A stretch of 64,000 bases of DNA. It comes from Candidatus Iainarchaeum sp. (GTDB lineage Archaea; Iainarchaeota; Iainarchaeia; Iainarchaeales; JAZDFD01). Both the position numbers and the translations under genes were made by a program. A model generated the notes under the pieces. The model made no database searches and had not been told where the DNA came from. It saw only the letters and a program-made list of their open reading frames with translations. The stretch covers positions 30,122-94,121 of the forward strand of contig JAZDFD010000001.1 in the NCBI GenBank assembly GCA_043808155.1, written 5' to 3'. This document shows, one piece after another, positions 9,168 through 64,000 of this stretch (positions are counted from its first letter, which is position 1; each line of letters begins with the position of its first letter).

Positions 9168-9614
9168 ATGACTATGACACATTCAGATTTGTTTGGCAAG
9201 AAAATAGTTATTAGGAGTTTTTTTGTTACGCCCTTGATTTTTTTATTTATTGTTTTAGTAATGAGTTCTAATCCCAGCTTTGGAAATATAAGCGACATAC
9301 AAAAAGCTGTGCTCCCATTTATTGCAATAACGTTTGCATTAGTGGGAATTATATCTAATGTTTTTGCTAGATTTACACTTGAGCAACAATTAAAAAATAC
9401 AGAACAGGATTTTCCAATACTACTAATAATGATGACTTTTTCAGAAATACCAGTAATTTTAGGTTTGATTCTTACAATACTGCTTGAAGAAATAATATAC
9501 TTCTTTGGATTTTTTGTTTTAACATATTTACTAATGTTATGGAATTTCGGTCTTGTAAAAAACTGGGAACAGAAGATGCAAGAAGACCAAGACCAAACGG
9601 GGATGTATGCATAG
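9168..9614 (+). CDS. Hypothetical membrane protein (~4 TM)
   Basis: Hydrophobic segments; starts 3 nt after the previous gene. Confidence 0.6.
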   Translation: MTMTHSDLFGKKIVIRSFFVTPLIFLFIVLVMSSNPSFGNISDIQKAVLPFIAITFALVGIISNVFARFTLEQQLKNTEQDFPILLIMMTFSEIPVILGLILTILLEEIIYFFGFFVLTYLLMLWNFGLVKNWEQKMQEDQDQTGMYA

Positions 9615-9766
9615 CCCCTGGGGATATTCACACACAGGGGACTCCATTCGCGATAATCCAACCAAACTTTACGAGAATAGTGAGATCACAACAACTTATC
9701 TGATGAGTAAAATAAACAAGTCTGCAAAGGAAATCCTTATATATCATTTGTATACCTATTTGATGT

Positions 9767-10033
9767 ATGAGCAATAAAATGATTAATTTGAGATTGGGCA
9801 ATCGTCTTATCCAAGAGATTGACAAAGCAGTAAAAGAAGAGCTTTACGAGAACAGAACTGAATTTATAAGAGCAATTTTAAGGGAAAAACTCAAAGAACG
9901 AAAAACAGAGAAATTAATCCAGAATTTGAAGAAAAGACAGGGCGAGGGAAAGCGATTGGGGATCAAAGACCCTTCAGAAGAAGAGTTCAGAAAAATCAGG
10001 GAAAATACATGGGATAAATTACATGAATCATAA
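9767..10033 (+). CDS. Ribbon-helix-helix (CopG/Arc/MetJ) protein, antitoxin-like
   Basis: 'MINLRL....IQEIDKAVKEELYENRTEFIRAILRE' RHH pattern. Confidence 0.8.
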   Translation: MSNKMINLRLGNRLIQEIDKAVKEELYENRTEFIRAILREKLKERKTEKLIQNLKKRQGEGKRLGIKDPSEEEFRKIRENTWDKLHES

Positions 10034-10456
10034 TTCTTCAGGAAGAAAAGATTTTGTAATGTGATTGAGTTTCTCAAAATGCTTATCTCTAGAAACGACA
10101 ATTGCACCATAATCTCTTGCAAGTACTGCGCACAAAGAATCTGTTTTAGGAATGTTGAATTTCTTGGAAATTTTCCTAGCTTCTTCAACTTGCGTATCAG
10201 AAGAATCAATAAATTCAATTTTCTTCGCATTCAGCAATTCTTTAAACACGGTATTTTGCAGATGTGATTCATTACAATTCAATATGTTTTTAATTTCAAA
10301 AACAACGTCCTTTGGAATAATCAGAAAATATTTACAACTTACTGCGTTATTGAAAAACTGAAATGCGAATTCGCCAAGCGGTTTAATTGAATCTTTTCTA
10401 TCAAAATAATAATCAAGAAAAATATTTGAATCCACAAAGACTCTCTCAGCAACCAT
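10028..10456 (-). CDS. PIN-domain (VapC-like) nuclease
   Basis: FVDSNIF, D..CAVLA and VSRDKHF motifs. Confidence 0.88.
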   Translation of the reverse strand: MVAERVFVDSNIFLDYYFDRKDSIKPLGEFAFQFFNNAVSCKYFLIIPKDVVFEIKNILNCNESHLQNTVFKELLNAKKIEFIDSSDTQVEEARKISKKFNIPKTDSLCAVLARDYGAIVVSRDKHFEKLNHITKSFLPEEL

Positions 10457-10523
10457 AAAAAAATATTTGTTTTTACATTTAAAAATAGATTAGCAAGAGC
10501 TCATTTCCGGTGAACTTAAAAAA

Positions 10524-10595
10524 AGCCCCTGGGGAGATTCGAACTCCCGATCCCTTGTTTACGAAACAAGTGCTTTACCACTAAGCCACAGAGGC
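10524..10595 (-). tRNA. tRNA-Thr(CGT)
   Basis: Cloverleaf: GCCTCTG/CAGGGGC acceptor, CTTGT-TTCGTAA-ACAAG anticodon arm, GGGAG-TTCGAAT-CTCCC T arm, U73. Confidence 0.95.
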
Positions 10596-15737: not shown

Positions 15738-15739
15738 GT

Positions 15740-15880
15740 GGGCCTGTGGCGCAACGGATAGCGCAGCTGCCTCCTAACGGACAGATCCGTTAACGATCTG
15801 TATGTGCGGGGTTTTCAACCCCGCGATAATAATACGTGGGAGCGAGCAGAAGGTTGAGAGTTCGATTCTCTCCGGGCCCG
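15740..15880 (+). tRNA. tRNA-Arg(CCT) with 68-nt intron at 37/38 (15777-15844)
   Basis: GGGCCTG/CGGGCCC-G acceptor, GCGC D stem, CT-CCT-A|intron|A; BHB central helix CTCC/GGAG; GAGAG-TTCGATT-CTCTC T arm. Confidence 0.9.
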
Positions 15881-15912
15881 ATATTCATTTTTTGTAATTT
15901 TAGAAATATTAC

Positions 15913-15965
15913 TGCACTGTTGTGCAAAACAATAGTGCACATATCGCACTAGCCGGGCGTTCGGC
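15913..15965. repeat. Hairpin + motif repeat, copy 3
   Basis: TGCACTGTTGT..ACAATAGTGCA hairpin then CGCACTAGCCGGGCGTTCGGC. Confidence 0.75.
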
Positions 15966-15966
15966 T

Positions 15967-15986
15967 TTCGATTCTCTCCGGGCCCG
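15967..15986 (+). repeat. 20-nt direct repeat of the tRNA-Arg 3' end (att-like)
   Basis: TTCGATTCTCTCCGGGCCCG is identical to 15861-15880. Confidence 0.9.
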
Positions 15987-16141
15987 CCTTTTTAAAAAAA
16001 GGCAGGTTGCAACTTAAACCAATGAGGTTTAAGTGCACACTGAAACCAAAGTTTCAGTTGTGCCAAAAAGGCAAATCCTTTGGGATTTGCACATCTATTT
16101 TTTCAAAACAACTTTTATTAACAACCGAGCCCAAGCGAGAT

Positions 16142-59463: not shown

Positions 59464-61113
59464 TTATTTCTTTTTTGCTTTCTTCTCAGATTTTTTTTGG
59501 GATACTTTGTCTAGTGCAAATCCCATTTCTTCAGCAAATGTTTTTTCAAAGTCATCAAGTTCTGCCATTTTCTGATCTATTTTCTTTATACGTAAATTAA
59601 TTTGTTTTTCAACATTTTTGCTTTGTTCATTCAGAGCATTAATTGAGTTATTGAATTTACCAACATTGTTTTCAATTACTTTTACAAACTGCTGTTTGAA
59701 AAGTTCCAAATCCTTCATTGCAATTTTAAAAGAGTCAGGATCAATTTCAGAAAGTAACTCTTCTTTGAAGGAATCAAGCTCATCTAATTTATCAGAAACA
59801 ATTTTTTCATAATCAGTTTTGTGTTCTTGCATTGCCTGATCAATTTTGTATTCTGCTAATTCTTTAAGACCTTTTAATTTTCCTTCTTTCTCGTCTAATT
59901 TTTCCTGTGCAGATTTATCGAACGCTTTTAGTTTTGATTCTACCCGTGAATCAAGACCTTTGAAAACAATTTTTTGTTCTTCTGCTAATCGTTTTGAAAT
60001 TTCTTCGAATGTATCAAGTTGTTTGTTTATTCTTTCCGGGTTTACTTTGTCTCTTAAGATACGCAGAGCCTGCATTTCAACATCAATTTCTGCTTTTATC
60101 TGCTCGGTTTTTTCAAGTGCAAGCTGATCTATTTTATCATTTGCATCCTTTACAACACCTTCGGCAATATTTGATTCTAATTCTAAAGTTCTTGAAACTC
60201 TTTCATCAATTTCCTGCATTTTGGATGTTGCATTTTCTAAAAATTCCTGAGCATCACTTTTGTTTCGTATCATGTCAGCAGTTAAATCCTGAACTAATTT
60301 TTGTTTTGTGTTTTGTAAATCAGACATTTTAGATTCAATTTCATTAAAAGTTGCTTTGTATTGTGCTTCTTTCCTTTCCAATTCATGCATATTATTTCTT
60401 ACAGACTCATTGAGAGTTTTCATCTCACGTATTTTTGTATCTATAATTTCTGTGATTTCTCCGACTTTTGAATCTAATTTTGAATTTACCCTATCAGCCA
60501 TAAGTTTTTGCTGGGATTCGAAAATTAATTTTTCCTGCATTAATCCTTTATCAACAGACGCTTTTATTTTCGCATCTAAAATAGCATCTATTTCTTCCCT
60601 TAATTTTTTCATTTCATGTACTTTCTGATCAACAGTAACAAGGATTCCTTTTTCCCAAAGTTTATTTAGATTCACAGATCTGTGAACAATTACTTGTGGT
60701 GCTTGCACATGCGGAACTGGTTTTGGTTTTTGAACAGATTTTGGTACGGATTTATGAATTGTTTTTTCTGTTTTTTTCTTTGGTTTTGGATCTTCTTCCA
60801 AATCATCCAAACCCGCAACTATTTCCTCTGTGTTTTCCATTGCCTCTTCCTCTGAAATTTCATTTTCAGCTGCAATGTCTTTGCTTGCTTCTGCTAAATT
60901 TATTGCAACATCGCGCATTACTTTTCCCGAATCTTTTTCGATTTCTTCCTGCTCTTTCTTTTTAACGGGAATTCCTTTTGCTTCTGAAATTAAATCATTT
61001 GCTTCGCTTTCAGAAACTCCGATTTCTTTCAGATTGAGAAGTATCTCTTCATCCAAAACATTCAGGGCAATCAGTTTCTTTATTGAATCCAGAATTACAC
61101 TTTTCTTATTCAT
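59464..61113 (-). CDS. Long coiled-coil hypothetical protein
   Basis: 549 aa, E/K-rich heptads. Confidence 0.7.
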   Translation of the reverse strand: MNKKSVILDSIKKLIALNVLDEEILLNLKEIGVSESEANDLISEAKGIPVKKKEQEEIEKDSGKVMRDVAINLAEASKDIAAENEISEEEAMENTEEIVAGLDDLEEDPKPKKKTEKTIHKSVPKSVQKPKPVPHVQAPQVIVHRSVNLNKLWEKGILVTVDQKVHEMKKLREEIDAILDAKIKASVDKGLMQEKLIFESQQKLMADRVNSKLDSKVGEITEIIDTKIREMKTLNESVRNNMHELERKEAQYKATFNEIESKMSDLQNTKQKLVQDLTADMIRNKSDAQEFLENATSKMQEIDERVSRTLELESNIAEGVVKDANDKIDQLALEKTEQIKAEIDVEMQALRILRDKVNPERINKQLDTFEEISKRLAEEQKIVFKGLDSRVESKLKAFDKSAQEKLDEKEGKLKGLKELAEYKIDQAMQEHKTDYEKIVSDKLDELDSFKEELLSEIDPDSFKIAMKDLELFKQQFVKVIENNVGKFNNSINALNEQSKNVEKQINLRIKKIDQKMAELDDFEKTFAEEMGFALDKVSQKKSEKKAKKK

Positions 61114-61225
61114 GTCGCAAATAGAAGGAAATAAGAATATAAAAAACTAACGAGTCCGGAGTTTTGTCTGGTAAAATGGCAGAAAAAGAAAAACATTATT
61201 AAACTGTGGAGAACATATTTTTAAC

Positions 61226-61738
61226 ATGGCAGGACCATCAAAACGCACAAATCTTAGAACAGCAAAACCAAAACCCCAACGTCCAAAGGATAGTAAAATT
61301 AACCCGCTATATCTTCTTGATGGATTTAGAGAATCCAGTTTCCAACGCGAAGAACTTAAGAAACAAGCCCAAACTAAACCTGCAGGTGCCTTCAGAAAAA
61401 AATCTATTGAACTTATCGGATTAGAGCCTGACGTAAGAAGAGTAGCTAAAAAATACCATGAACTAAGGTTATTGTTGCTTGAGGAAATTTTAGAAAATGA
61501 AAATGTGCCCTCAGATAAATTAGCTGAGCATTTATATTCAGTATATCCTATTTTACGTACTGAAGCAAGAATAAACGAACCTTCAATTTCACAAAACATG
61601 GGAAAAAACATAATTAGCAAGCTGAATAGAATTAATGTTAGAATAAGTAATTTATCAACACCAGGAACAGAAATAGAACGCAGGAAATTAATAGATAAAA
61701 TTAATGAACTAATTCCTTTGATAAAAGAAATGCACTGA
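61226..61738 (+). CDS. Hypothetical protein with basic/Pro-rich N-terminus
   Basis: 170-aa ORF. Confidence 0.5.
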   Translation: MAGPSKRTNLRTAKPKPQRPKDSKINPLYLLDGFRESSFQREELKKQAQTKPAGAFRKKSIELIGLEPDVRRVAKKYHELRLLLLEEILENENVPSDKLAEHLYSVYPILRTEARINEPSISQNMGKNIISKLNRINVRISNLSTPGTEIERRKLIDKINELIPLIKEMH

Positions 61739-61852
61739 TTTTATGAGACAATCAGGATTTGAATCATAGTCTAATTTATGAATGAACAGTTCATTCTTTT
61801 TGACAGATTATATTATCACAATAATATTTACAAAAGATGAAATTTAATTTTA

Positions 61853-61880
61853 TGGGCCCTACGGGATTTGAACCCGTGAC
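61853..61880 (-). pseudogene. 3' half (positions 46-73) of an interrupted tRNA
   Basis: GTC-ACGGG-TTCAAAT-CCCGT-AGGGCCC-A; acceptor strand complements 62846-62852. Confidence 0.85.
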
Positions 61881-61909
61881 AAAAATAAAAGCTTGGGGCA
61901 CTTGCCCAA
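61881..61909 (-). terminator. Hairpin + T-run downstream of the nested tRNA-Ala
   Basis: TTGGGC-AAGT-GCCCCAA followed by TTTTATTTTT. Confidence 0.5.
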
Positions 61910-61910
61910 A

Positions 61911-62002
61911 TGGACTCTGCGGGAATCGAACCCGCCGTCTCACGATCTTTGTCAAATTAAATTTGTTGCCAACCGTGCGTGTTACCGCTACACCAAGAGC
62001 CC
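61911..62002 (-). tRNA. tRNA-Ala(GGC) with 20-nt intron at 37/38 (61947-61966), nested inside the interrupted tRNA
   Basis: GGGCTCT/AGAGTCC-A with G3:U70; CACGG-TTGGCA|intron|A-TCGTG; GCGGG-TTCGATT-CCCGC; relaxed BHB. Confidence 0.88.
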
Positions 62003-62761
62003 GACTCTTTTCCTTTTATATGGTTTTACTAGTTGTAGAAACGGTTTTACTGACCTTTTCCAAAGATAAATATGATAAATATCTTTAAAACCCGAACGTA
62101 TTATTACACGAAGACTGCAAATTATATCAAAACCATCTAAAATTTCTTTGATTTGGTACGCTAGTTTTTTTGATGTAGTACAATAAACTATTTTTATATT
62201 TCCATCAGCAGCCCTACAAACAGTGCCATCTGTGTCTAAAAAACCCCTTAAAAAACCTATCAGAAACCCCTCAGAAAAATTTAATTTTTTTAATCCGACA
62301 GTACAATGTTTAATTTTCGGATCATATTCTAAATAATTTTTAAAATGATTAGAAATTTTTTTTGAATTTGTTCTTAATCTAAATCTCTCCCGTGACTCAC
62401 TTAGCAAATTAAATTTCTTATTAAAATATTTCCCAAATAGATCTTTTACATAATAAACATAATCAGTTTTTCCAAAATGAACATTAACTTCATAGTGGCC
62501 TCTTTTTGTATCATGATATTGGCTACCATCACCAGCAAATATACCTACAATTTCACCTTCCAATCCAGAATAATTCAAATCAAATTCAGGTTCAAAATAT
62601 GTTCTCCCTCTTAATTTTCTAAAATAATAATATATTGTTGTTTTTGGCAACCCAGTTTCTTTTGCAATTTTGTTCAGTGAACTTCCGTCTTTAATTAATT
62701 GAAGCATTTTTGTTTTTGCTTCTTCGGGAATCCTAGATAAACTAAATGACTCTCTCAGCAT
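61988..62761 (-). CDS. Free-standing HTH + double-motif LAGLIDADG homing endonuclease
   Basis: N-terminal HTH 'SLNKIAKETGLPKTTIYY'; motifs IVGIFAGDG and FLRGFLDTDG; no intein splice blocks. Confidence 0.9.
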   Translation of the reverse strand: MLRESFSLSRIPEEAKTKMLQLIKDGSSLNKIAKETGLPKTTIYYYFRKLRGRTYFEPEFDLNYSGLEGEIVGIFAGDGSQYHDTKRGHYEVNVHFGKTDYVYYVKDLFGKYFNKKFNLLSESRERFRLRTNSKKISNHFKNYLEYDPKIKHCTVGLKKLNFSEGFLIGFLRGFLDTDGTVCRAADGNIKIVYCTTSKKLAYQIKEILDGFDIICSLRVIIRSGFKDIYHIYLWKRSVKPFLQLVKPYKRKRVGLLV

Positions 62762-62820
62762 AATAAAATTTGCAATTTTCTTATTTTTAAAGAACTTGTA
62801 AGAGTAGATTTCCAGTGAAC

Positions 62821-62852
62821 AAAGAGCGATCTACCAGCTGATCTAAGGGCCC
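62821..62852 (-). pseudogene. 5' half (positions 1-32) of an interrupted tRNA
   Basis: GGGCCCT-TA-GATC-AGCTGGTA-GATC-G-CTCTT-T. Confidence 0.85.
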
Positions 62853-62877
62853 ATAGCTAAATAAGACTGAGAAAAGC

Positions 62878-62891
62878 TATTAAAACTTTTA
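62878..62891 (-). promoter_or_regulatory. BRE/TATA promoter of the interrupted tRNA
   Basis: AAAAAG-TTTTAATA, with the TATA 26-33 nt upstream of G1 (62852). Confidence 0.55.
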
Positions 62892-62899
62892 GAATCAGT

Positions 62900-63118
62900 T
62901 TAAGGAGAAATGAAAACTACGTTGTCTCCGCGTAAGAGGATTTTTCCGTATTTTGTTTTTATTTCGCCGTCTTTTAATTCGGCAGCATTTTCAAGAACAA
63001 CATTCATGTGAACATCGAATGCTTTCAAAGTTCCGCGTACGTGCAAATCGTATTTCAGAACAACTAAAACTTCTTTTCCAATGCTTTCGTTCAAAAGATC
63101 GAATGGTCTGCTTGTCAT
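62900..63118 (-). CDS. Sm-like (LSm/SmAP) protein
   Basis: 'RP.D.L', 'GTL.AFD.HMN.VL' and 'RGDNV'. Confidence 0.93.
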   Translation of the reverse strand: MTSRPFDLLNESIGKEVLVVLKYDLHVRGTLKAFDVHMNVVLENAAELKDGEIKTKYGKILLRGDNVVFISP

Positions 63119-63134
63119 AAAATCACTTTTAGAA

Positions 63135-63923
63135 TCATTTCTTTTTTCTAAACAACTTGTTTAACAGTCTTGTTATAAAGCTTTCTTTCTTTGGCTGCTC
63201 AAACTGAATTGAAAGTCCTGCTAACTTTGCAGCTGACCTGTGAATTGCACCTGACGCAGGTGCTTCTGGTCTGCGAACAATTACAGGAGAAACTTTTTCC
63301 TGCATGAATGATTTTCTTACTTCGTCATCATAAGGAATTTTTCCGTAAATTGGAAGTTCCAGCATTTTCATAATGTCTTCGCTTGAAACTTCACCTTTTT
63401 CATCTCTTATGAAATTAACAATAACTCCGATTGGTTTTGTGTTTAATCTTTGTGCAACAATTTTTGTTTTTAAAACATCTGCAATGGATGGTGAATCAGG
63501 CATTGTAACTAACAACACTTCCTCACATGCACTTAATGCTGAGAGAACATTTTTTTCAATTCCTGCTGCAGCATCTAATAAAACAAAATCATAATCTCCA
63601 GCAACTGATTTTATTACTGACGCTAATCTTTCAGAATCCACTCTTCGATAAGATTCCAAACTTAATCCTGAAGGAATAAAATGCACGCCCTGAGGACCAT
63701 CGTAAATTGCATCTCTTACTGAGCTTTCGCCTAAAAGAACATCATGCAGTGTGATGGGGGAACTTTGCATTCCCAAAAGAAGTGAAAGATTTGCCATTGC
63801 AACATCAGCATCCACTAAAAGAACTTTCTTTCCGCGCATTGCTAATGCAATGCCTAAGTTTGCAGTAATAGTGGTTTTTCCGACTCCGCCTTTTCCAGAT
63901 GCGATTGTTATTATTCTGACCAT
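63135..63923 (-). CDS. minD: MinD family ATPase (archaeal)
   Basis: SGKGGVGKT, DAD..MANL and a C-terminal amphipathic helix. Confidence 0.9.
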   Translation of the reverse strand: MVRIITIASGKGGVGKTTITANLGIALAMRGKKVLLVDADVAMANLSLLLGMQSSPITLHDVLLGESSVRDAIYDGPQGVHFIPSGLSLESYRRVDSERLASVIKSVAGDYDFVLLDAAAGIEKNVLSALSACEEVLLVTMPDSPSIADVLKTKIVAQRLNTKPIGVIVNFIRDEKGEVSSEDIMKMLELPIYGKIPYDDEVRKSFMQEKVSPVIVRRPEAPASGAIHRSAAKLAGLSIQFEQPKKESFITRLLNKLFRKKK

Positions 63924-64000
63924 TTTAATCATCAAAATGCGTTCTTATACATTCCCGTATATTCTCACAATATTCTCATACAATAAAGTCTTAATAGATT

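Follow-up and report, generated by a model that had tools for sequence, protein, structure and literature searches.

In the 64,000-nt stretch of DNA analysed here (the window), the sequence reads as two pieces of a tRNA-Ala-like gene with a cassette between them, all on the minus strand and downstream of minD and lsm. We assign a probability of about 0.78 to the reading that a selfish cassette of ~940 bp, made up of a free-standing homing endonuclease gene (HEG) and a replacement tRNA, was inserted into the anticodon arm of a resident tRNA-Ala(GGC) gene. The cassette would have taken the place of tRNA positions about 30-45, leaving positions 1-29 and about 46-73 as non-functional remnants, and would consist of its own promoter block, a free-standing HTH-LAGLIDADG HEG, an intron-bearing tRNA-Ala(GGC) and a terminator. 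The cell's only tRNA-Ala(GGC) would now be supplied by the inner gene.

Organization of the locus

All features of the locus lie on the minus strand. A minD/ParA-type ATPase gene (63135..63935), which matches the Pfam CbiA/ParA families, provides conserved context, and minD homologues are also found upstream of the HEG in the homologous loci L025 and L026. It is followed by the Sm-like gene lsm (62900..63118; Pfam LSM, 81.6 bits), a conserved upstream neighbour of tRNA-Ala(GGC) that gave tblastn matches in all 11 of the relatives' loci fetched. A TATA-like box read from the sequence at 62878..62885, -33 to -26 from the first tRNA base, is a putative promoter element of the original tRNA gene. 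The 5' tRNA-Ala remnant (62824..62852) comprises positions 1-29, which form the acceptor 5' strand, the D arm and the start of the anticodon stem.

The left edge of the cassette is a 22-nt motif of the TTCACYGGAAATCTACTCTTAC type (62798..62819), recognized by its genome-wide count relative to shuffles. A second TATA-like box, also read by eye, lies at 62782..62791, 20 nt before the ATG, and the endonuclease mRNA would be leaderless or have a short leader. The ORF for an HTH and double-motif LAGLIDADG endonuclease of 257 amino acids (61988..62761; Pfam HTH_7 and LAGLIDADG_3) is the only Pfam-matching ORF between the remnants. Its stop codon falls inside the inner tRNA gene, at bases 13-15 of this complete, intron-bearing tRNA-Ala(GGC) (61911..62002; Rfam, Aragorn). 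A hairpin (61907-61896) and a T-run (61890-61881), which together occupy 61881..61907, are the probable terminator of the cassette; both were read from the sequence, and the hairpin also appears in the cofold. The 3' tRNA-Ala remnant (61853..61880) then supplies the end of the variable loop, the T arm, the acceptor 3' strand and a discriminator A.

Much of this anatomy had been proposed in an earlier note on this DNA. Its 3' half at 61880-61853 is upheld by the sequence and the tRNA-Ala profile, and Pfam, Rfam and Aragorn agree with its account of an HTH-LAGLIDADG ORF, an intron-containing tRNA-Ala(GGC) and a hairpin with T-run on the same strand between the halves. The 5' half, placed at 62852-62821, is present behind a properly positioned TATA box, but the tRNA ends at 62824 and the three extra bases are not tRNA-like. 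The cassette has a promoter-like block of its own (62819-62798 and 62791-62782), so the proposal that it borrows the promoter of the tRNA can hold in part at most.

The outer tRNA pieces

The acceptor strands of the outer pieces pair at 7 of 7 positions (GGGCCCT/AGGGCCC), the perfect match that the earlier note had described, and neither the 4-bp D stem nor the 5-bp T stem is disrupted. An nhmmer profile of tRNA-Ala matches the 5' piece over profile positions 1-28 (E=0.071) and the 3' piece over positions 47-73 (E=0.0041). The 5' piece is identical at 27/29 positions to the syntenic intact tRNA-Ala(GGC) of the relative L002, and the 3' piece is identical to that gene at 20/24 positions and to the tRNA-Ala(TGC) of its own genome at 22/26. 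The remnants are also diverged copies of the ends of the inner tRNA (15/21 and 19/24 identical). Their acceptor stem has C5 with G68, whereas the inner tRNA has U5 with A68, and since these compensatory bases are common to both remnants, both derive from one gene. They look more like complementary halves of that older gene than like one repeated segment. The 3' remnant carries C70 instead of U70, one transition away from the U70 of the relative L008, whose acceptor stem is otherwise identical to that of the broken gene. Synteny and sequence settle the identity of the broken gene as Ala-type.

The anticodon arm is missing from the outer pieces. The gap is 16 nt and extends over positions about 30-45, not ~33-45 as first proposed, so that splicing the outer flanks together would give no complete tRNA. 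Cofolding of the junction regions yields no bulge-helix-bulge (BHB), only the acceptor helix and a spurious 4-bp contact, and complementary leader and trailer sequences of the split-tRNA type are likewise absent from the cofold, which shows the acceptor helix only. Within 61000-64000, Rfam finds no group I or II intron or other match at E<=1. The earlier claim that no BHB or group I structure joins the halves therefore stands, and the pieces, having no anticodon arm, BHB or group I intron to join them, are remnants, not exons. As specific candidates, a giant BHB intron or split tRNA was rejected on the missing anticodon arm and the junction helix that does not form, and a group I intron was rejected on the lack of an Rfam match at E<=1 over the same interval.

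The inner tRNA and the endonuclease

The inner tRNA scores 51.1 bits against the Rfam tRNA model and is called Ala(ggc) i(37,20) by Aragorn. Its minimum free energy fold is a cloverleaf with an extended anticodon helix (-31.1 kcal/mol), and it has the G3:U70 pair and the alanine anticodon GGC expected of tRNA-Ala, with a 20-nt intron at 37/38 (61965-61946). Three Ala tRNAs were found in the assembly, which is 88% complete: TGC, CGC and the inner GGC. The inner gene is the sole Ala(GGC) tRNA among them, in keeping with its suspected status as the only such gene of the genome.

The 257-aa protein matches Pfam LAGLIDADG_3 at 3.8e-12 and HTH_7 at 1.7e-5. Residues G77-D78-G79 and D176-x-D178-G179 are invariant across 40 homologues, and the Asp of both motifs is kept. 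The AF2 model (pLDDT 92.9, pTM 0.80) has I-DmoI as its top free-standing structural match in Foldseek (2vs8_K, E=1.2e-9, TM 0.80 on target), and the two analyses together give the pseudo-dimeric alpha-beta-beta-alpha-beta-beta-alpha fold with two acidic-ended motifs that characterizes single-chain LAGLIDADG enzymes. The LAGLIDADG fold of the putative endonuclease is complete, with both motifs present and the catalytic residues conserved. The ORF is free-standing and does not reside in a self-removing intron or intein, as no BHB and no group I/II match at E<=1 surrounds it.

Under the main reading, tRNA-Ala(GGC) alleles without the cassette would be cut by the enzyme within or close to the anticodon arm, repair would copy or capture the cassette, and both remnants could then be used as homology arms for further homing. 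The inner tRNA would escape cutting because its sequence differs and because the intron splits the region at 37/38. With the stop codon inside the tRNA, a single transcript would either be processed at the tRNA 5' end or be translated into full-length enzyme, but not both.

Filled and empty sites in related genomes

An intact tRNA-Ala(GGC) follows lsm, with no cassette, in 9 of 11 related lsm loci. It lies 53-647 nt from lsm and is co-directional in 6 of the nine and inverted in 3. The HEG was not found at any of these nine sites that hold the tRNA (9/9), and neither remnants nor traces of the endonuclease were detected in L002-L012 (nhmmer; tblastn at E<=1). The best protein match in 40 relatives is only 31% identical, so that the distribution is patchy and no orthologue is found there. 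The window, L025, L026 and L041 do carry the HEG at the lsm-tRNA-Ala site, which amounts to a presence/absence polymorphism at a conserved site. No empty-site allele was recovered from a close (same-species) relative. These loci, one of which has the tRNA that is 27/29 identical to the 5' piece, provide the intact, cassette-free tRNA that had been anticipated in relatives, and together with the anatomy they sustain the structural inference of a non-splicing cassette in the anticodon arm of a tRNA.

The nearest homologue, L025 (65% identical), occupies the same minD-lsm locus, where a 5' fragment of 15-18 nt from the same type of tRNA precedes the enzyme gene; its order is minD, lsm, 5' fragment, endonuclease gene and tRNA-Ala(GGC). 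Comparison of the tRNA sequences with those at the relatives' lsm loci suggests that the cassette may travel with a distinct tRNA type. The 5' fragments of the window and L025 are identical at 14/15 positions, whereas the proteins are only 65-76% identical. Such fragment identity is unexpected for neutral DNA left by one old event, and counts against the main reading.

Coupling of the enzyme family to tRNA genes

The family has 99 homologues at E<=1e-5, the closest being 64-69% identical; a metagenome scan gave 80 loci, with identities not exceeding 47%. Of 161 loci in DPANN archaea and candidate phyla radiation (CPR) bacteria, 133 have a tRNA or tRNA T-loop directly next to the 3' end of the ORF: the tRNA is co-directional in 91 and convergent in 42, and the other loci comprise 9 contig ends and 19 with none. 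The stop codon of the ORF usually falls within the first 10-20 bases of the adjoining tRNA throughout the family, so that the overlap is conserved. LAGLIDADG-tRNA units are widespread in DPANN genomes, where the earlier note had expected them, and tRNA pieces flank several of these units.

Enzyme clades track tRNA identity, namely Ala, Gly and, in CPR bacteria, Tyr. One clade of 44 rows (support 98) has 34 labelled tRNA-Ala, and another of 24 rows (support 99) is entirely tRNA-Tyr, the pairing seen in CPR bacteria. Mapping tRNA labels onto the enzyme tree requires 35 changes, versus a mean of 94 when labels are shuffled, and 0 of 200 shuffles reach 35.

Fragments of displaced tRNAs also flank other loci. 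Among 58 co-directional loci, four have a 5' fragment ahead of the enzyme gene by alignment (L042, 23/26 identical; L112, 20/26; L119, 18/18; L069, 19/24), and two more, in L106 and L025, were recognized by profile and by eye; the remaining 52/58 have no remnant. Beyond the enzyme gene, 3' fragments occur in 10 of 40 convergent loci. Remnants on both sides are seen in the window locus alone among the loci examined. Left junctions vary by locus, following tRNA position about 18, 26, 29, 31 or 43, a spread more readily explained by imprecise or independent insertions, or by later erosion, than by precise homing to one site.

A viral or plasmid carrier was considered and rejected: viral contigs gave 22 loci in which all long matches are <=28% identical, the matches above 28% being stretches of ~50 residues only. 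The viral contig scan gave no evidence that the family rides on known viruses. The full-text literature searched gave no account of a coupling between LAGLIDADG and tRNA genes in DPANN or CPR.

Other units and a shared motif in the same genome

Three more enzyme-tRNA units are present in this genome, with Arg-TCG, with Leu-TAG and a 3' remnant, and with Met and a 5' fragment. An intron is found in 4/4 of the enzyme-linked tRNAs of this genome versus 7/40 of the others (Fisher p=0.0024). Across the database loci, by contrast, 38/75 adjacent and 18/44 non-adjacent tRNAs have one (p=0.34), which is no enrichment; counts in both sets are rough because Aragorn misses tRNAs with multiple introns. 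Results are therefore mixed for the hypothesis that the intron gives the HEG-linked tRNA immunity.

Some tRNAs of this genome that lack an endonuclease gene (Glu, Arg-CCT, Gln, Asp, Gly-TCC and Thr) are likewise followed by 3' remnants, and therefore another mechanism may make tRNA remnants here. The 22-nt motif occurs at 12 sites in the genome versus 0-1 in 10 shuffles. It opens a 71-nt block that is 94% identical to C6:22333-22403, and at three sites it lies 4-10 nt from a tRNA end or remnant. The window also contains a PIN and ribbon-helix-helix cassette with the same motif, situated between tRNA-Thr(CGT) and a 16/17 repeat of the 3' end of that tRNA.

Assembly support

The locus is ~1.1 kb from the end of a metagenome-assembled contig. 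Its right junction is bridged with 0 differences by a 229-nt contig of another run (X2 record 9), which covers the flank, the 3' piece, the T-run and the end of the inner tRNA. The left junction is bridged by a 428-nt contig (X4 record 19) that is 97% alike, with 8 differences and 1 gap, and covers lsm, the 5' piece and the promoter block. No single independent record spans the whole cassette. The records compared were low-depth Logan contigs; no run covers certain parts of the cassette, a gap that counts neither for nor against the assembly.

Three side observations come from the same runs. A contig from an RNA library (X3 record 12) aligns to 62750-62838 with 4 differences but diverges beyond that stretch, and cannot show transcription here. 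A joint of 61935 to 63060 (X1) may represent a cassette-free relative, but with only 20 letters on the shorter side it is too weak to count. Sampled-word shares in the runs are all below 0.35, and no habitat claim is drawn from them.

Alternative explanations

The insertion could be real and the endonuclease a passenger, with a trans-acting integrase or recombinase acting at tRNA att sites, or illegitimate recombination, having placed the cassette much as the other small cassettes of this genome that have the same 22-nt boundary motif. The PIN and ribbon-helix-helix cassette beside tRNA-Thr(CGT), the closeness of the motif to tRNA ends and remnants at three sites, and the 3' remnants behind tRNAs that have no endonuclease gene all favour this explanation, and a layout of 5' fragment, element and intact tRNA is known for a recombinase element of Caldiarchaeum (PMC3293823). 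We nonetheless regard it as unlikely: neither the ORF list nor the Pfam search reveals an integrase or recombinase gene between the remnants, endonuclease clades follow tRNA identity across phyla, which is unexpected for a passenger, the ORF-tRNA overlap is conserved, and the outer pieces look more like complementary halves separated by 16 missing nt than like a simple att-type direct repeat.

WhiA is a domesticated, non-cutting regulator with a LAGLIDADG fold, and the protein could similarly be a DNA-binding regulator of the tRNA with which it is co-transcribed, the split tRNA being an unrelated old scar. The structural matches indeed include WhiA complexes (8dy9_I, E=2.1e-7), an HTH domain accompanies the LAGLIDADG fold, and the tight, conserved ORF-tRNA overlap could mean co-regulation. 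The invariant acidic residues of both LAGLIDADG motifs in 40 homologues, the patchy distribution with no orthologue in the 40 relatives searched, and displaced tRNA remnants exactly at the borders of enzyme genes make this improbable. Still harder to credit is a chimeric join of strain variants that is present in no cell. Proximity to a contig end and the lack of an independent record across the whole cassette would suit such an artefact, but contigs of other runs bridge both junctions, and the independent genome of L025 shows the same gene order, including the 5' fragment. We consider it highly implausible that the outer pieces are exons of a working tRNA, whether separated by a giant nested intron that is removed by splicing endonuclease or by self-splicing, or joined in trans as a split tRNA. 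Perfect acceptor pairing, intact D and T stems and a well-placed TATA box are what exons would have, but the joined pieces have neither an anticodon loop nor the 3' strand of the anticodon stem. The cofold and Rfam results already given also oppose this, C70 abolishes the G3:U70 alanine identity pair, and in a contig from a related strain the 5' acceptor strand is altered by two substitutions and one insertion.

Relationship to known systems

Homing endonucleases are thought to persist in self-splicing introns or inteins or, in phages, free-standing beside their targets. LAGLIDADG-bearing BHB and group I introns splice out, and the host gene survives. The predicted fold of the window enzyme is that of archaeal BHB-intron (I-DmoI type) and group I LAGLIDADG enzymes, which similarly target stable-RNA genes, but the window cassette has no BHB or group I structure, and function is kept by the replacement gene it carries. 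In one survey, all 39 archaeal group I introns found reside in rRNA genes (PMC6125680).

SegB of phage T4 is a free-standing homing endonuclease encoded in a tRNA gene cluster; it performs intronless homing, its recognition site includes a conserved motif of the tRNA T arm, and its gene is co-inherited with neighbouring tRNA genes at the cost of the competitor's tRNA region (PMC2330249). The endonuclease gene in the window is, like segB, free-standing between genes and beside a tRNA, with no intron or intein, but SegB, in the same source, is a phage enzyme of the GIY-YIG family encoded between intact tRNA genes (PMC2330249). The window enzyme, in contrast, is an HTH-LAGLIDADG protein of cellular DPANN/CPR chromosomes, its ORF overlaps one particular tRNA, and its unit sits inside the broken target gene.

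At a Caldiarchaeum tRNA-Thr locus, a 1.8 kb recombinase-encoding element is explained by att-site recombination; the reconstituted tRNA has an extra intron, and the authors propose that introns protect against further invasion (PMC3293823). Both loci have a tRNA 5' fragment, an element gene and an intact tRNA on one strand (PMC3293823). The window cassette differs in having no recombinase, with the LAGLIDADG endonuclease its only gene, and in supplying a whole tRNA while 16 nt of the target are lost. 'Fractured genes' are reported to have a free-standing endonuclease gene between the halves of a split-intein gene (PMC2677866). The window locus resembles them in that a homing-endonuclease gene separates two parts of a host gene, but fractured-gene halves function through protein trans-splicing (PMC2677866), whereas those in the window are non-functional and come with a complete extra copy.

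Implications

The locus suggests a third solution to the problem of persistence in cellular genomes, which is to disrupt an essential RNA gene while supplying a second copy of it. We tentatively propose, at somewhat less than even odds, that DPANN and CPR genomes hold an undescribed class of 'replacement homing' elements, in which a HEG is welded to a tRNA gene, or part of one, that replaces the destroyed copy, and in which the enzyme clades are tRNA-specialized, on Ala, Gly, Arg, Leu and Met, and on Tyr in CPR. The tRNA-Tyr pairing in CPR bacteria suggests that the strategy is general among ultra-small, episymbiotic microbes. If true, replacement homing would drive tRNA gene turnover, scatter tRNA halves and bring introns into tRNA genes, and would show concretely, at the DNA level, how archaeal tRNA genes could become disrupted and rich in introns. 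The 22-nt motif would then serve these and other selfish cassettes as a shared control or boundary element.

The origin of archaeal tRNA fragments, halves and non-canonical introns is a long-standing puzzle. If the enzyme is active, it would provide a testable DNA-level mechanism for all three and would account for swaps of tRNA gene type at a conserved locus. It would also represent a family of compact, apparently tRNA-gene-specific meganucleases for which natural 'filled' and 'empty' sites exist.

An endonuclease gene and a tRNA inside a tRNA-Ala gene

The source genome (1.08 Mb, 35% GC, 88% complete, 35 contigs) includes a 94-kb contig whose final 64 kb form the window. On the window's minus strand, minD (63935-63135) and lsm (63118-62900) precede a TATA-like box (62885-62878) and a 29-base piece corresponding to tRNA positions 1-29 (62852-62824). 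Four bases separate this 5' piece from a 22-nt motif (62819-62798), which is followed by a second TATA-like box (62791-62782), a 257-codon endonuclease ORF (62761-61988) and a complete tRNA-Ala(GGC) (62002-61911) that has a 20-nt intron after position 37 and overlaps the final 15 bases of the ORF. Beyond a hairpin and T-run (61907-61881) lies a 28-base 3' piece (61880-61853), consisting of the variable-loop end, T arm, acceptor 3' strand and discriminator. The acceptor strands of the two outer pieces pair perfectly, and the pieces have common bases that differ compensatorily from the inner tRNA; both are therefore parts of one older gene, whose positions ~30-45 are missing. The earlier note had described a tRNA gene split by a LAGLIDADG cassette carrying its own tRNA-Ala; both pieces, the ORF and the inner tRNA are present, and this structural interpretation is supported. 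We show that an intact endonuclease gene, together with a full-length tRNA, entered the anticodon arm of the resident tRNA-Ala(GGC) gene as a single unit; the resident gene is dead, and the carried tRNA-Ala(GGC) stays.

The locus is neither a chance resemblance nor an artefact. In a search over 80 loci, a tRNA-Ala profile detects both outer pieces (E=0.071 and E=0.0041), and the 5' piece is identical at 27 of 29 positions to the intact tRNA-Ala(GGC) after lsm in one relative (L002). The locus is close to the contig end, and no single record from other public runs spans the whole cassette. The right junction is spanned by a contig from another public run (229 nt, 0 differences), and lsm, the 5' piece and the promoter block by a 428-nt contig, also from another run, with 8 differences and 1 gap. 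Three of these changes are in the 5' piece, in its acceptor strand, and are what one would expect if this remnant is decaying. In an independent genome (locus L025), minD and lsm are likewise followed, in this order, by a 5' fragment, an endonuclease gene and a tRNA-Ala(GGC).

The outer pieces were also considered as exons and rejected as such: the joined RNA would have no anticodon loop, and cofolding of the junction regions yields the acceptor helix alone, with no bulge-helix-bulge (BHB). Rfam matches at E<=1 are limited to the inner tRNA itself and two weak ones attributable to chance; none is a group I intron. No Ala(GGC) gene other than this tRNA is detected in the 88%-complete assembly, where the Ala profile gives three full-length matches (TGC, CGC and GGC) and tRNA-Val as the next best.

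The empty site in relatives

We compared 11 lsm loci from genomes in the same order as the source. An intact tRNA-Ala(GGC) lies 53-647 nt from lsm in nine of them (six co-directional, three inverted); one of the other two lacks such a tRNA, and in the last the contig stops just past lsm. The window endonuclease is found at none of the 11 loci, and its best protein match among 40 relatives searched is 31% identical. An intact tRNA at a cassette-free site, as in the nine relatives, is the outcome that the earlier note had named as support for its model; the note had also proposed to check for a second Ala(GGC) gene, and the profile search detects none. The inverted genes (L004, L010 and L012; spacers 190-370 nt) hint that the site has been rearranged more than once.

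At the lsm site, tRNA-Ala(GGC) comes in two sequence types, told apart by the D arm. The outer remnants belong to the type whose D arm resembles other Ala isoacceptors, and the inner tRNA to the type with a different D arm, which is also found at L025, L026, L043 and in three cassette-free relatives. C70 of the broken gene differs from U70 of the relative L008 by a single transition, and the acceptor stems are otherwise alike.

The endonuclease family and its tRNA neighbours

The ORF product is a member of the LAGLIDADG family. According to Pfam, it combines a LAGLIDADG_3 domain with an HTH at the N terminus. Across 40 aligned homologues neither of the two LAGLIDADG motifs varies, nor do their aspartates, and the best free-standing structural match of its confident AlphaFold2 model (pLDDT 92.9) is the intron-encoded I-DmoI (E=1.2e-9, TM 0.80 on target).

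A large protein collection contains 99 homologues at E<=1e-5, with source names of DPANN archaea. Among 161 loci examined (79 from genomes, 80 from metagenomes and 2 of the source genome), 115 have a tRNA no more than 130 nt from the ORF 3' end according to Aragorn or the Ala profile (88 co-directional with the ORF, 27 convergent). A T-loop motif occurs within ~90 nt in 17 further loci, and one more was recognized by eye. The earlier note had proposed a search of DPANN genomes for LAGLIDADG-plus-tRNA units flanked by tRNA halves; in total, 133 of the 161 loci, from DPANN and candidate phyla radiation (CPR) genomes, have a tRNA beside the ORF 3' end (91 co-directional, 42 convergent), 9 are at a contig end and 19 have none.

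In a FastTree phylogeny with local supports of the proteins from 155 of these loci, proteins cluster by adjoining tRNA: tRNA labels change 35 times, versus a shuffled mean of 94, and 0 of 200 shuffles are as low, in a test that ignores that kin share labels. An Ala clade (44 entries, support 98) includes 34 labelled tRNA-Ala, and places the window sister to L025; the ORF stop codon in this clade is mostly on U8-A9-G10 of the tRNA or within its D loop. The tree also holds a Tyr clade (24 entries, support 99, all tRNA-Tyr(GTA), CPR bacteria), a tRNA-Gly(CCC) group, and a 20-entry clade (16 convergent) whose neighbours are mainly convergent multi-intron tRNA-Gly(TCC) genes. Because lsm is upstream of the endonuclease gene in only 3/159 database loci, the enzyme goes with the tRNA and not with the neighbourhood.

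The 24 Tyr-clade proteins (L078-L099 and L148-L182, CPR/Patescibacteria) are distant homologues, ~25-27% identical, encoded directly upstream of tRNA-Tyr(GTA); L084 and L091 have exact 14-15-nt repeats of the tRNA-Tyr 3' end ~165 nt downstream. Elsewhere in the family, L042, L106 and L119 have a common structured leader ~200 nt upstream of the endonuclease ATG, comprising a long hairpin and then a second hairpin that pairs a ribosome-binding-like word, GGAGGTG, immediately ahead of the start codon. These hairpins may limit endonuclease translation.

Displaced tRNA pieces at other loci

A significant same-strand tRNA 5' fragment is found upstream of the endonuclease gene in 4/58 co-directional loci (L042, L112, L119 and L069), and profile and eye add two more (L106 and L025). 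These six loci, together with 10/40 convergent loci that have a tRNA 3' fragment beyond the endonuclease gene (an eleventh match, of low complexity, was excluded), are the database loci with a displaced tRNA piece on one side. Of the loci seen, only the one in the window is flanked by a remnant on each side. The 5' fragments end after approximately position 18, 24, 26, 31 or 43, and the left junction is therefore not fixed. In L045, L048, L123, L125, L147 and similar convergent loci, the working gene, which is tRNA-Gly(TCC)-like, carries 25-30 extra nt between the 5' strand of its T stem and the T loop, and the displaced remnant across the endonuclease gene has an unbroken T arm.

Three more free-standing LAGLIDADG genes in the source genome touch intron-bearing tRNA genes (contigs C13:8585-9456, C6:22391-23441 and C6:33326-34173). 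The Arg-TCG unit has a 16-nt gene-tRNA overlap; the Leu-TAG unit has a 48-nt overlap and a 16/17 3' remnant 69-86 nt downstream of the tRNA; the Met unit is convergent, with a 3-nt gap and a 20-nt tRNA 5' fragment ~70 nt upstream of tRNA-Met. Similar 3' remnants also occur downstream of tRNAs without any endonuclease gene (C6:35293-35470; window ~15739-15990, tRNA-Arg CCT), which suggests frequent past tRNA gene replacement in this genome. These near-identical short remnants lie 46-107 nt past Glu-CTC (20/21), Arg-CCT (20/20), Gln (13/13), Asp (12/12) and Gly-TCC.

A putative promoter motif common to diverse cassettes

The 22-nt motif TTCACYGGAAATCTACTCTTAC (<=4 changes) has 12 sites in the source genome, versus 0-1 in shuffles, always directly upstream of a TATA-like box (window 62798-62819 and 10493-10514; contigs C4, C6, C13, C16, C23, C30, C32 and C34). 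Six sites precede LAGLIDADG-domain genes, five free-standing and one an intein in a Hel308-like helicase; others precede TnpB-like, Fic/DOC, PIN and, by eye alone, TBP-like genes. In several Woesearchaeota loci (L030, L031, L035, L040, L106, L112, L119, L048 and L055), the endonuclease gene comes after a related word, CACTGGACA.

A 71-nt promoter-plus-start-codon block (window 62749-62819) is 94% identical to C6:22333-22403, its counterpart in a second, otherwise unrelated LAGLIDADG cassette of the same genome, which suggests recent conversion between cassette promoters. In a contig of a related strain from another public run, this block is followed by different sequence.

In window 9613-10595, read on the minus strand, the motif promoter comes 10 nt after tRNA-Thr(CGT). 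It precedes an ORF for a PIN-domain protein (10456-10028), to which a ribbon-helix-helix ORF (9767-10033) is convergent, and last comes a 16/17 repeat of the tRNA 3' end (~9629-9613). Judged by sequence, the arrangement is that of a toxin-antitoxin-like cassette bordered by a repeat of a tRNA end.

Probable mechanism and known systems

In the most likely mechanism, the endonuclease would cut cassette-free alleles near the anticodon arm, and repair of the break would copy or capture the cassette. Remnants and flanks could then act as homology arms, allowing the filled allele to home into empty ones. The inner tRNA would be spared, owing to its different sequence and to the intron that interrupts it at 37/38. 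With the stop codon inside the tRNA, 5' processing of the tRNA and full-length translation from one transcript would be mutually exclusive, which would hold enzyme levels low.

Evidence against homing by the endonuclease includes the variation of junctions between loci and the absence of remnants at most of them. Introns are enriched on enzyme-linked tRNAs in the source genome (4/4 versus 7/40, p=0.0024), but not significantly across database loci (38/75 versus 18/44, p=0.34). Insertion at tRNA genes may also follow a second, endonuclease-independent route, since remnants occur past tRNAs without an endonuclease gene, including the PIN/ribbon-helix-helix cassette between tRNA-Thr and the repeat of its end. 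That the protein is instead domesticated and non-cutting, like WhiA, stays alive at low odds because this non-cutting regulator is among the structural matches, further down the list than I-DmoI.

The closest working analogue is phage T4 SegB, a GIY-YIG endonuclease whose free-standing gene lies among clustered tRNA genes; SegB recognizes the T-arm motif and promotes inheritance of the tRNA region to which it belongs (PMC2330249). The nearest architecture is the Caldiarchaeum tRNA-Thr locus, in which a 5' fragment is followed by an element of 1.8 kb that encodes a recombinase and then by an intact tRNA with one additional intron; this layout was attributed to integrase-type recombination (PMC3293823). 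Otherwise, LAGLIDADG enzymes in archaea are described from inteins and from rRNA-gene introns of the BHB and group I kinds (PMC6125680), and those of CPR bacteria are reported in rRNA insertions (PMC8172020, PMC11809585). No description of LAGLIDADG genes paired with tRNA genes in DPANN or CPR turned up in a full-text literature search. As read from its sequence, the window element differs from other free-standing homing elements in carrying a putative replacement for the gene it breaks.
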